Notes under the pieces: model-generated | Told to the model about the DNA's origin: nothing | The model's database searches: none | The model's input: only the letters and a program-made list of their open reading frames with translations | From: Escherichia coli | GTDB taxonomy: Bacteria; Pseudomonadota; Gammaproteobacteria; Enterobacterales; Enterobacteriaceae | DNA: 64,000 nt | Reading direction: 5' to 3' (one strand) | Assembly (NCBI RefSeq): GCF_030384885.1 | Contig: NZ_CP128613.1 | Position numbers and translations under genes: made by a program | Part shown: piece by piece, positions 4,452-64,000 of the stretch | Layout of the letters: each line of letters starts with the position of its first letter | How positions within the stretch are numbered: position 1 is the stretch's first letter

Positions 4452-4712
4452 TTACTGACGAGGATGCTTCAATAACTTCTTTACATAATCGCGCAGCAGC
4501 TCCGTATCGTCGTCAGGAATGCTGGCATCGGGCTTTACCTCGTAAAGTGCCCCCTCAACCTGATCAATCAACCGCTGTTGGTCATTTTGCGCCATATTAC
4601 GAAGCATTGCAGTGACGATAATCTCCAGTGCTTCTACCTGCGCGCACAGTTCTTTCGACTCTTCTTCTTTTTGGGCAAGCTTAAATAACAACTCAGCAAT
4701 GAGATTTTTCAT
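4452..4712 (-). CDS. iraP: Anti-adaptor protein IraP (RpoS stabiliser)
   Basis: 86 aa [33 protein letters not shown]...; matches IraP/YaiB from memory. Confidence 0.9.
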
Positions 4713-5174
4713 GTCTGTATTTCCTTATCCAAAGTATGGAGAAGTTAACATTATGCTTCACAACTTCATAGTGTCTGGAGGTAGTATTTTTATGACGAAT
4801 GAAATACTTTGCGCAAATATTTTTTCCATATTTATCAGCGAAACGTTTCTCTTATTTAAATAAGTAACCATACAAAGTATAGGTTTTTAATTATCAACCT
4901 TTATTATAAGTAAAAGTTATGAAATATATTCTCTTTGCTAACTTATAATTAAGAGAAAAAAACTCACTGCATGGCCATTTAAACCAGGAATAAATTAGCT
5001 TCCCGTTCATCATTTTTGTGATCTTGCGCACATCTTTGAGATAACGCACTTTCTTCACCAGTACGTTGCACACTTTGTCAGTAGAAGATTGCAACATTCT
5101 GTCAGAAGGCCGCGAATCCCCCGTTTTGTCGTGGTAATGTATGCACTTTGTGTTAGACGGGATAGGTTTTCAAG

Positions 5175-6269
5175 ATGGAAAAACTGCGGGTAGGAATCGT
5201 TTTTGGTGGTAAATCAGCGGAACATGAAGTGTCTTTGCAATCGGCAAAAAACATTGTCGATGCCATTGATAAAAGTCGCTTCGACGTTGTGCTGCTGGGC
5301 ATTGATAAACAAGGGCAATGGCACGTCAGCGATGCCAACAATTATCTGCTAAATGCAGACGATCCTGCCCATATTGCGTTGCGCCCTTCGGCGACCAGTC
5401 TTGCGCAGGTGCCTGGTAAACATGAGCATCAGCTTATCGACGCACAAAACGGTCAGCCATTGCCGACGGTGGATGTCATTTTCCCGATTGTTCACGGTAC
5501 GCTAGGCGAAGATGGTTCCTTGCAGGGAATGCTGCGGGTCGCCAATTTACCGTTTGTGGGTTCTGATGTTTTGGCGTCAGCGGCCTGTATGGATAAAGAT
5601 GTCACCAAACGTCTGCTACGCGATGCCGGGCTGAACATTGCGCCATTTATTACCCTGACACGCACCAATCGTCAAAACATCAGTTTTGCCGAAGTGAAGT
5701 CAAAACTGGGGTTACCGCTGTTTGTAAAACCCGCTAACCAAGGCTCTTCTGTTGGTGTCAGCAAAGTAACCAGTGAAGAAGAGTACGCAATTGCCGTCGA
5801 TCTGGCGTTCGAGTTCGATCATAAAGTGATCGTTGAGCAAGGGATCAAAGGTCGTGAGATCGAATGCGCGGTTCTGGGCAACGACAATCCGCAAGCCAGT
5901 ACCTGTGGCGAGATCGTACTAACCAGCGATTTCTATGCCTACGACACCAAGTACATTGACGAAGATGGCGCGAAAGTGGTGGTTCCGGCAGCCATTACGC
6001 CTGAAATTAACGATAAGATCCGGGCAATTGCCGTTCAGGCTTATCAAACGTTGGGTTGCGCAGGCATGGCGCGTGTAGACGTGTTTTTAACCCCAGAGAA
6101 CGAAGTGGTAATCAACGAGATCAACACACTGCCAGGCTTCACCAACATCAGTATGTATCCGAAGCTGTGGCAAGCCAGCGGTTTGGGTTACACCGACCTG
6201 ATCACACGTCTGATCGAGTTGGCGCTGGAGCGTCACGCTGCGGATAACGCATTGAAAACCACAATGTAA
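5175..6269 (+). CDS. ddlA: D-alanine--D-alanine ligase A
   Basis: 364 aa [29 protein letters not shown]...; ATP-grasp ligase. Confidence 0.95.
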
Positions 6270-60442: not shown

Positions 60443-60618
60443 CAATTACATGGATGAAATTAAATGTTTTATTTCAATTTGTTAGAGAAAAAGTCATGAA
60501 GTAATCTGCAAATATGCGTTTCAGTTAACGTTTCAGGCAATGTTTCACTGCGTTTCATTGCAACAATTATGAAACAAGACTAAACCCAATATTCGGTTTC
60601 TTAACTTTGCGGTGCGCT

Positions 60619-62205
60619 ATGGCACATCCACCACGGCTGAATGACGACAAACCGGTTATCTGGACGGTATCTGTAACGCGGCTGTTCGAGCTGTTTCGCG
60701 ATATCAGTCTCGAGTTTGATCACCTGGCAAACATTACCCCTATCCAGCTTGGCTTTGAAAAAGCGGTGGCCTACATCCGCAAAAAACTGGCCAGCGAACG
60801 CTGCGACGCCATCATTGCCGCTGGCTCTAACGGCGCGTACCTGAAAAGCCGCCTGTCGGTACCGGTGATTCTGATAAAACCGAGTGGCTACGATGTGTTA
60901 CAGGCACTGGCAAAAGCCGGAAAACTCACCTCTTCTATCGGCGTTGTCACCTATCAGGAAACCATTCCGGCACTGGTAGCGTTTCAAAAAACCTTTAATT
61001 TGCGCCTCGACCAACGTAGCTACATTACCGAAGAAGACGCACGTGGGCAGATTAACGAGCTAAAAGCCAACGGCACCGAAGCGGTGGTCGGCGCGGGGCT
61101 GATTACCGATCTGGCAGAAGAAGCCGGAATGACCGGAATTTTTATCTATTCTGCCGCCACCGTGCGCCAGGCATTTAGCGATGCGCTGGATATGACGCGC
61201 ATGTCGTTACGCCATAATACTCACGATGCCACCCGCAACGCCCTGCGTACTCGTTACGTGCTGGGCGATATGCTCGGTCAATCACCACAGATGGAACAAG
61301 TACGGCAGACTATTTTGCTGTATGCCCGCTCCAGTGCGGCGGTGTTGATTGAAGGGGAAACGGGGACGGGCAAAGAGCTGGCGGCCCAGGCGATTCATCG
61401 GGAATATTTTGCCCGCCACGATGCGCGACAGGGCAAAAAGTCGCATCCTTTTGTTGCCGTCAACTGCGGGGCGATTGCTGAATCTCTGCTGGAAGCGGAG
61501 CTGTTTGGCTATGAGGAAGGAGCGTTTACCGGCTCGCGACGCGGAGGCCGCGCCGGGCTGTTCGAAATTGCCCACGGCGGTACGCTGTTTCTTGACGAGA
61601 TAGGCGAAATGCCGCTGCCGTTGCAGACCCGGCTGCTGCGGGTGCTGGAAGAAAAAGAGGTCACCCGCGTCGGCGGGCATCAGCCTGTTCCGGTGGATGT
61701 GCGGGTTATTAGCGCCACTCACTGCAATCTCGAAGAGGATATGCAGCAAGGGCGTTTTCGCCGTGATCTGTTTTATCGACTGAGTATTTTGCGTCTGCAA
61801 TTGCCGCCGCTACGCGAGCGGGTGGCGGATATTCTGCCGCTGGCGGAAAGCTTTTTGAAAGTGTCACTGGCGGCACTTACTGCGCCGTTTTCTTCCGCGT
61901 TACGTCAGGGATTACAGGCAAGTGAAACTGTGCTGTTGCGCTACGACTGGCCGGGAAATATTCGTGAACTGCGCAATATGATGGAACGACTGGCGCTATT
62001 TTTAAGTGTGGAACCAACGCCGGATTTAACGCCGCAATTTTTGCAGTTGCTACTGCCGGAACTGGCGCGCGAGTCGGAGGAAACTCCCGCTCCACGTTTA
62101 CTGACGCCACAACAGGCACTGGAGAAATTTAATGGCGATAAAACAGCCGCGGCGAATTATTTAGGTATCAGCCGAACGACATTCTGGCGGCGGCTGAAAA
62201 ACTGA
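60619..62205 (+). CDS. prpR: Sigma-54-dependent activator of the prp operon
   Basis: ORF 60607-62205; start [17 protein letters not shown] at 60619; AAA+ core ([13 protein letters not shown]) and C-terminal HTH. Confidence 0.9.
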
Positions 62206-62302
62206 AATGCCGAATCCAGCGCGAACGCCTTATCCGGCATAAATTTCAATAGATGATCACCGATAAACTTACGCATCGGGCATGTTTACATGGGGTGCAG
62301 AA

Positions 62303-62762: not shown

Positions 62763-63395
62763 ATGGATCCCTTGCACGCCGTTTACCTGACCGTAGGACT
62801 GTTCGTGATGACTTTTTTTAATCCGGGAGCCAATCTTTTTGTGGTGGTGCAAACCAGCCTGGCTTCCGGTCGACGCGCAGGAGTGCTGACCGGGTTGGGC
62901 GTGGCACTGGGCGATGCGTTTTATTCCGGGTTGGGTTTGTATGGTCTTGCGACACTCATTACGCAGTGTGAGGAGATTTTTTCGCTTATTAGAATCGTCG
63001 GCGGCGCTTATCTCTTATGGTTTGCGTGGTGCAGCATGCGCCGCCAGTCGACACCGCAAATAAGCACACTACAACAACCGATTAGCGCCCCCTGGTATGT
63101 CTTTTTTCGCCGTGGATTAATTACCGATCTCTCTAATCCACAGACCGTTTTATTTTTTATCAGTATTTTCTCAGTAACGTTAAATGCTGAAACACCAACT
63201 TGGGCACGTTTAATGGCTTGGGCGGGAATTGTGTTCGCATCAATTATCTGGCGAGTCTTTCTTAGTCAGGCGTTTTCTTTGCCCGCTGTGCGTCGTGCTT
63301 ATGGGCGTATGCAACGCGTTGCCAGTCGGGTTATTGGTGCAATTATTGGTGTATTCGCGCTACGCCTGATTTACGAAGGAGTAACGCAGCGGTGA
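62763..63395 (+). CDS. yahN: LysE/RhtB-family amino acid exporter
   Basis: 210 aa polytopic membrane protein; the upstream ATGs at 62725/62728 are in a different frame and run into a stop. Confidence 0.85.
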   Translation: MDPLHAVYLTVGLFVMTFFNPGANLFVVVQTSLASGRRAGVLTGLGVALGDAFYSGLGLYGLATLITQCEEIFSLIRIVGGAYLLWFAWCSMRRQSTPQISTLQQPISAPWYVFFRRGLITDLSNPQTVLFFISIFSVTLNAETPTWARLMAWAGIVFASIIWRVFLSQAFSLPAVRRAYGRMQRVASRVIGAIIGVFALRLIYEGVTQR

Positions 63396-63520
63396 GCAGA
63401 TAATTTACTCTCTACGTAATCAACCTGATTTGCCGAATCCCGCTCATCGGCGATGATACCCCCCGTAATGCGTGGTCCTTATTTCCGATAAGTTTACTTG
63501 AGTCTTTAGCTTCCCATTTC

Positions 63521-63550
63521 AGCCCACTCTCCCCTGTGTGGGCTTTTTTC
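63521..63550 (+). terminator. Rho-independent terminator downstream of yahN
   Basis: AGCCCAC-TCTCCCCTGT-GTGGGCT hairpin followed by TTTTTTC. Confidence 0.55.
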
Positions 63551-63641
63551 ATTTGTCTGCTTCAGTGAGTAGCTGGCAATGCTCCATCCACTCTGCAAGG
63601 ATGATAATAAGAGGATCTGATTCAGAAGAGTTTTGAAAAAT

Positions 63642-63722
63642 TGGACCGCCATCGAGGCCTCGAACCCCGTACCATACAACAATCCTGGTTGTCGTCTGCT
63701 CTTCCTGATGAGCTAATGGCGG
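63642..63722 (-). ncRNA. tRNA-like element with atypical anticodon region (possible tRNA pseudogene or tRNA-derived RNA)
   Basis: Minus strand: perfect 7-bp acceptor stem CCGCCAT/ATGGCGG, U8, D-arm GCTC-ATCAGGAA-GAGC, T-arm CGGGG-TTCGAGG-CCTCG, discriminator plus encoded CCA. About 5 nt too long between the D and T arms; anticodon loop lacks U33. Confidence 0.3.
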
Positions 63723-64000
63723 TTTGTGATATGAGCCTTACAGCATATTGTCTGTCAGGCTTGAGTGCGATGCGTAAGATACAGAAAAGACCCCACACAA
63801 ACATGATGGAATTATGATTTTTTTCATATGAATGTCAACCAACACATTCATAAAACACTCGCACAAGTTCACTTTTTAAGCAACATGACGCCGATCACAA
63901 CAAAATATCGGCGAAAAAGGAGGGTAAATGCCATTTGACGTGGAGATAAGCAGATGAAATGATTACCCGCTTTGCGATTCACTCTCTGATGGAATAACAA

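Follow-up and report, generated by a model that had tools for sequence, protein, structure and literature searches.

[quoted passage not shown] Sequences at or just upstream of a −35 hexamer are otherwise familiar as repressor operators, including SOS boxes, and as the UP elements of stable-RNA promoters. The promoter described below faces a tRNA-like element, whose homologues are the middle members of ileZ-argN-argO clusters in Stx and lambdoid phages and on plasmids.

The window that we analysed, a stretch of 64,000 nucleotides of an E. coli contig (NZ_CP128613.1), ends in the prpR-yahO-yahN-yahM-yahL region, which is reversed with respect to K-12. Strain 2013C-4282 matches this sequence at 100% identity, and most E. 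coli match it at about 91% over 63400-64000. The annotated yahN gene lies at 62763-63395 on the plus strand, the yahM reading frame at 63412-63652 on the minus strand, and yahL at 64025-64840, beyond the window end and also on the minus strand. Just downstream of prpR, at 62166-62239 on the minus strand, a stretch weakly resembles the REP-derived naRNA4 family, with a score of 25.7 bits that is under the gathering score. In the yahL-yahM intergenic region, 174 bp past the yahL stop and 176 bp before the yahM ATG in the minus-strand sense, the initial annotation had pointed out a perfect palindrome, ATGAATGT-CAACCAAC-ACATTCAT, at 63828-63851. The sequence reads as claimed, and a repeat finder extends it by one base pair on each side, giving 9-bp arms, TATGAATGT at 63827-63835 and ACATTCATA at 63844-63852, that are 100% complementary across the 8-nt spacer CAACCAAC. 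The half-site centres are 15 bp apart, or about 1.5 helical turns. A lone perfect repeat of this size is unremarkable by itself, because the window contains 33 inverted repeats with arms of at least 8 and spacers of at most 20, against 19.7 ± 4.2 in Markov simulations, and 16 with arms of at least 9, against 4.6 expected. The motif, with up to two mismatches allowed, occurs once in the 64-kb window, and its median in E. coli is one place per genome. We rejected a REP or other dispersed repeat on these counts, such repeats being present in many copies.

The palindrome overlaps a close match to a sigma-70 promoter on the minus strand. TTGACA (63838-63833, 6/6) and CATAAT (63816-63811, 5/6) are separated by 16 bp and together match the consensus at 11 of 12 positions, within the 16-18 bp spacing and near the TTGACA and TATAAT hexamers by which sigma-70 promoters are recognised; in our own scan of both strands over the whole 64 kb, this was the sole match of at least 11/12. 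The transcription start predicted from this geometry is the A at 63804 (63802-63806, minus strand), 7 nt past the −10 hexamer. Numbered from it, the palindrome extends from −48 to −23 with its centre at −35.5: the distal arm lies at −48 to −40, the dyad spacer at −39 to −32 and the proximal arm at −31 to −23. The −35 hexamer straddles the junction between the dyad spacer and the proximal arm, taking 3 nt from the end of the one and 3 nt from the start of the other, and the proximal arm with the adjacent spacer bases holds TTGACA and the first third of the 16-bp promoter spacer. A second small palindrome, TTCATATGAA at 63823-63832, can be read in the promoter spacer, where it overlaps the proximal arm. 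We consider it very likely that a functional promoter directed towards the tRNA-like element and yahM lies under the palindrome. The suggestion in the initial annotation that the palindrome may be part of a promoter is supported in that it contains the TTGACA of this promoter. The promoter had tentatively been assigned to the following gene outside the window, which is the wrong way round: it is a minus-strand promoter that fires into the window. The gene found beyond 64000 is yahL, which lies upstream in the same orientation with its 3′ end facing the palindrome.

This position also bears on whether the palindrome acts as an RNA stem-loop, terminating or stabilising read-through from yahL, or as a DNA cruciform. 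The repeat follows yahL on the same strand at the distance given above, and as single-stranded DNA it forms a hairpin that folds better than shuffled sequences (z = −2.7) but is weak (−5.8 kcal/mol). However, neither strand of the A/T-rich stem has a U-run, the stem is shorter in nearly all genomes (6-7 bp), and the palindrome lies upstream of the predicted start and hence outside the yahM transcript. A terminator scan found no intrinsic terminator in 63300-64000. With no G+C-rich stem, no T-run and only a weak fold, we rejected the terminator or hairpin reading and consider a role of this kind very unlikely indeed. A separate inverted repeat, CGCCGAT-N11-ATCGGCG at 63889-63913, is conserved in E. 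coli lineages inside the variable yahL-promoter stretch and may be a yahL 3′ hairpin, with no T-run after it.

The predicted start lies 82 nt before the tRNA-like element and 152 nt before the yahM ATG. As the initial annotation had it, the palindrome is upstream of this element in the minus-strand sense: the element occupies 63722-63642 on the minus strand, after a leader at 63723-63803 on the same strand, and forms a cloverleaf with a 3′ CCA. ARAGORN classifies it as tRNA-Ser(gga); Rfam found no tRNA at 63722-63642 and no family at E ≤ 1 for the palindrome, the leader or the tRNA-like element. With a 93-nt query across the element, 5,169 of 5,199 E. coli records matched at 95% identity or more, and an RNA annotation of it was absent from the E. 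coli records that we examined. RNA polymerase would start at about 63804 and transcribe the 82-nt leader, the strictly conserved tRNA-like RNA and then the poorly conserved yahM frame, the ATG of which falls within the 3′ acceptor strand of the tRNA-like element. That frame is annotated as frameshifted in this lineage, has a frameshift in strain BH100 as well, is split into fragments in different frames in locus L010 and in E. albertii, and is deleted in Escherichia sp. E1V33. The RNA module upstream is retained where the frame is frameshifted, fragmented or deleted, and the yahM reading frame looks dispensable. The tRNA-like element is likely the main product of the promoter. yahM has been recorded as a differentially expressed transcript in a small-RNA-enriched library. 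A 60-aa open reading frame at 63622-63804 (minus strand), listed as a hypothetical protein in some genomes, begins exactly at the predicted start and would therefore be leaderless; it is probably non-coding, judging from a stop at codon 4 in E. albertii in an alignment read by eye. We also judged that the plus-strand frame opening at the ATG in the palindrome (63828-63938, 36 aa) is no gene, as it enters a variable, indel-bearing region.

The homologues of the tRNA-like element introduce a phage origin as a further account of the dyad. The element could have come from an ileZ-argN-argO cluster 3′ of Q and the late promoter of Stx or lambdoid phages, in which case the dyad would be left over from a Q-binding element or some other regulatory site of a phage. 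Identity between the tRNA-like element, together with the short spacer that precedes it, and the middle member of the phage cluster is 78-87%; in mEp460 and YeP1, about 200 bp separate the cluster from Q upstream of it, and YahL (271 aa) is close in length to those Q proteins (272-273 aa). Nevertheless, the phage homology is confined to the tRNA-like part and does not cover the leader, the promoter or the dyad, while YahL lacks an Antiterm domain and shows no similarity to the Q proteins by BLASTP. Unlike in mEp460 and YeP1, neither a tR′-type terminator nor an early −10-like pause element follows the start, and the dyad is kept in lineages without yahL. A lambdoid late promoter with a Q-binding element is largely refuted by the limited phage homology and the unlike YahL, and we regard a phage relic at the dyad as very unlikely.

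Within E. coli, the 46-bp segment comprising the promoter and the dyad was found once per genome in 5,165 of 5,426 complete genomes. Of the 5,167 matching records, 4,939 had at most two mismatches (exact in 13, 1-2 mismatches in 4,926), and a further 227 had 3-4. A 71-bp megablast query retrieved 18 genomes, which we attributed to the low-complexity filter and the word size and not to absence, and the search was repeated in a more sensitive mode. The perfect 9-bp form occurs in 13 (46-bp query, exact) to 18 (71-bp query) of the 5,426 genomes. It arises through the replacement of C by T at 63851; the C of K-12 and most E. coli leaves perfect 7-bp arms, TGAATGT/ACATTCA, and many strains have the spacer CAACCCAC as well as this C. 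The perfect 9-bp palindrome is hence a rare, derived and lineage-specific state. The dyad core itself is conserved in other Escherichia species as well as in about 95% of E. coli genomes, so the lack of conservation in related strains that the initial annotation had named as grounds for dismissal was not found. Plasmid copies of the promoter turned out to be F-prime plasmids or mis-assigned chromosome and offered no new context.

From the distal arm onwards (63851-64000 and beyond; 4452-5441 in locus L001), this lineage carries a divergent haplotype that differs from K-12 by about 15% and lacks a 40-bp segment that K-12 has near 63877. YahL of this lineage is 87% identical to K-12 YahL, and YahK 98%. 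The edge of the haplotype suggests a recombination junction at the border of the module described below. Two independent insertions lie within 2-3 bp of one another in the promoter spacer beside the proximal arm (63825-63827; L004 1605-1621; L050 about 150): an IS1 in strain SW071618, where it is joined to the fec region, and an IS2 in strain p10B. They could reflect a local hot spot or selection against the promoter.

Beyond E. coli, a YahN-anchored search yielded loci from 37 species-level genomes, among which the module of dyad, promoter, leader and tRNA-like element was present in Escherichia loci alone; Citrobacter, Salmonella and others have yahN without it. We aligned E. coli, two cryptic-clade Escherichia and E. 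albertii. The tRNA-like element is invariant from E. coli to E. albertii (0/81 variable columns), as are the −35 hexamer (0/6), the proximal arm (0/9) and the CATTCA of the distal arm (0/6). Variation is limited to one column in the −10 hexamer (1/6) and two in the promoter spacer (2/16, both in E. albertii near the T-run), and it is extensive in the distal half of the dyad spacer (3/4), in the fast-evolving leader (29/82 or 35% over 63723-63804) and in 63853-63880 (23/28). The −35 hexamer is the same in 7/7 Escherichia sequences, and the −10 hexamer is altered in E. albertii alone (CATATT). The 28-bp core promoter is unchanged in E. coli and the two cryptic-clade Escherichia, the leaders of which differ from K-12 at 10-16 of 82 positions. 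The arms are 7 bp in the two cryptic-clade Escherichia and 6 bp in E. albertii, where the innermost base of the distal arm is changed; TGAATG and CATTCA do not vary in any of the lineages, E. albertii included. No indel was found within the dyad in 7-8 Escherichia lineages, so the arm spacing is fixed, and no compensatory double change in the arms was seen across the aligned Escherichia, as E. albertii just loses the innermost pair.

The block shared between species has its upstream edge at 63853-63860: homology with Escherichia sp. E1V33 and E. albertii ends at about 63860, and the divergent yahL-side haplotype starts here. The palindrome forms the upstream border of a compact module, about 220 bp long, that comprises the dyad, the near-consensus promoter, the leader and the tRNA-like RNA. 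This module is kept without yahL (E1V33 and E. albertii) and without the yahM frame (E1V33), and its conservation across Escherichia does not depend on these two annotated genes. From E. coli to E. albertii, the tRNA-like RNA does not differ at a single base, while its leader, the yahM frame and the genes on either side decay or are replaced. What is more unusual here than the palindrome is the target of its promoter, a perfectly conserved and unannotated tRNA-like RNA.

Conserved arms, a free spacer and a fixed spacing across relatives are what a dyad operator is expected to display, and the dyad displays all three. We place at about an even chance the reading in which the palindrome constitutes the −35 and upstream part of the yahM-locus sigma-70 promoter on the minus strand and its arms form an operator-like site. 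That the dyad is a regulatory site bound by a protein is a proposition to which we give slightly less than even weight. If so, a protein bound to the two arms would occlude the −35 hexamer and repress the promoter. The candidate repressor would be IHF, the sole one reported for the yahM promoter, or equally possibly another dimeric regulator; no regulator gene was found adjoining the dyad, and YahL gave no DNA-binding domain hit. The outer part of the proximal arm, TATGAA (−28 to −23), is invariant within the promoter spacer, where sigma-70 makes no base-specific demand, whereas the neighbouring T-run changes in E. albertii. The initial annotation's proposal of a regulator-binding site is plausible on the pattern of arms and spacer, and the preprint puts an IHF repressor site somewhere in the yahM promoter (10.1101/2025.05.13.653802).

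Several observations speak against an operator. The ancestral dyad has just 6-7 perfect base pairs per arm, for which the probability of overlapping a given −35 by chance is about 0.04-0.15 (in sequence of local composition, about 0.002 repeats with 9-bp arms, 0.04 with 7-bp arms and 0.15 with 6-bp arms are expected to overlap one given −35). The perfect symmetry in this lineage stems from one lineage-specific substitution, compensatory double changes were not seen, the conservation of the proximal arm is partly owed to the −35 hexamer, and a half-site spacing of 15 bp is unusual for a simple helix-turn-helix dimer. The six invariant columns of the distal arm are weakly significant when set against the variable-column rate of the leader (p ~ 0.08).

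The main rival to an operator is promoter anatomy. Here the proximal arm would be conserved for the −35 hexamer and the promoter spacer, the distal arm would be an A/T-rich, UP-element-like contact for the alpha subunit of RNA polymerase or a product of chance, and the symmetry would be accidental, with no regulator involved. The promoter strand from −51 to −42 reads TTTTATGAAT (TTTTGTGAAT in K-12), which is A/T-rich and has a T-tract at the place of the distal UP subsite, and the promoter drives a tRNA-like gene. The short ancestral dyad within the range of chance, the origin of the perfect form in a single lineage-specific substitution and the lack of compensatory changes are all compatible with accidental symmetry. 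On the other hand, the match to the UP consensus is partial, E. albertii breaks the T-tract (AAGAC on the plus strand), and the arms are invariant while the dyad spacer and the adjoining T-run vary. A discrete repressor site at the yahM promoter, as given in the preprint (10.1101/2025.05.13.653802), is also at odds with an account that involves no regulator. We see promoter anatomy alone as a real possibility, if well short of an even chance.

If the dyad is bound as an operator, the question of its protein turns to IHF. On the minus strand, TATGAATGTGTTG (63852-63840) differs from the IHF consensus WATCAANNNNTTR by one mismatch, at the conserved C. The mismatches within the palindrome rise from one here to two in K-12 and, by hand count on an alignment, to three in O157 and B2-type strains and in the lineages with the CCCAC spacer; by the same count, the match decays to three mismatches in most E. 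coli. In this window and in K-12, we scanned a region that begins about 95 bp below the −35 hexamer and ends 125 bp above it, and the distal arm with the spacer gave the sole IHF-consensus-like matches within about 100 bp of the promoter. However, a match with at most one mismatch is present in 27% of random 200-bp sequences of local composition, and about 2.7 matches with at most two mismatches are expected per 200 bp. The IHF-motif matches at the palindrome are at chance level, and the link to IHF is weak on sequence: chance alone would produce matches of this kind, the conserved C is absent, and the mismatches number three in most E. coli.

Other regulators known to bind dyads offer partial likenesses to the palindrome, which could accordingly be a LexA-like site, a NikR operator or a half-site of the Zur, KdgR or PrpR kind. 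Its ATGT-N8-ACAT has the geometry of the SOS box, but the C and G essential for LexA are replaced by A and T, and no exact CTGT-N8-ACAG exists in the 64-kb window. TATGA-N16-TCATA matches the NikR operator GTATGA-N16-TCATAC at 10 of 12 positions, which is chance level (two sequences with at most two mismatches found against 1.5 expected), and the match drops to 9/12 in most E. coli. Repeated GTTTCA(T) half-sites at 60541-60576 in the prpB-prpR intergenic region, including GTTTCAT-N10-ATGAAAC, are probably PrpR enhancer sites. The dyad shares the ATGAA/TTCAT pentamers with these probable sites upstream of prpB in the same window, although their half-sites have the opposite orientation and another spacing. 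PrpR activators, moreover, normally act on sigma-54 promoters, and the promoter here is of the sigma-70 type. All of these likenesses come from trying a range of familiar motifs, which amounts to multiple testing. We compared the palindrome with the known operators of LexA, NikR, CRP, ArgR, Fur, Zur, MetR, KdgR and Fis and with the LysR-type T-N11-A, none of which fits; K-12 has a CRP-like TGTGA half-site, but without a partner half-site. A site for one of these known regulators is scarcely credible.

Should the dyad be a true operator, it would provide an experimental handle on when the tRNA-like RNA is made, and it would suggest that the changes in yahM expression seen in transcriptome studies reflect this RNA and not a protein. 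A bolder extension is that IHF or another regulator switches a strong promoter via the dyad and that the real product of this promoter is not YahM but a domesticated, regulated, phage-derived tRNA-like RNA concealed by a y-gene annotation; taken as a whole, we consider this scenario unlikely. The feature in its entirety is probably a promoter-embedded, operator-like dyad of an ordinary kind.

Compared with repressor operators that overlap the −35 hexamer, SOS boxes among them, the dyad is alike in being centred at about −35.5, where a bound protein would exclude RNA polymerase, and in having conserved arms, a variable spacer and a fixed spacing. The SOS box CTGT-N8-ACAG and the ATGT-N8-ACAT of the dyad share their geometry, and the critical LexA bases are not present in the dyad. 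From generic dyad operators it differs by its half-sites 15 bp apart and its ancestral symmetry of 6-7 bp. With the UP elements of stable-RNA promoters, the locus has in common an A/T-rich stretch from −40 to −52, a near-consensus promoter and a tRNA-like gene as the target, whereas the consensus match is partial, a G+C-rich discriminator is lacking and symmetry with the promoter spacer is foreign to UP elements. IHF sites are asymmetric, and IS1 is said to favour IHF-bent DNA. The palindrome resembles IHF-repressed promoters in the two IS elements inserted beside the dyad and in the IHF repressor given for the yahM promoter in the preprint (10.1101/2025.05.13.653802), and departs from the asymmetric known sites in its match, which is at chance level and without the conserved C. 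Finally, the acceptor, D and T arms link the tRNA-like element to its homologue, the aberrant middle member of the ileZ-argN-argO cluster, but the element has another anticodon and another variable region, and it is chromosomal and solitary, standing without ileZ and argO behind a near-consensus promoter of its own that lacks phage homology.
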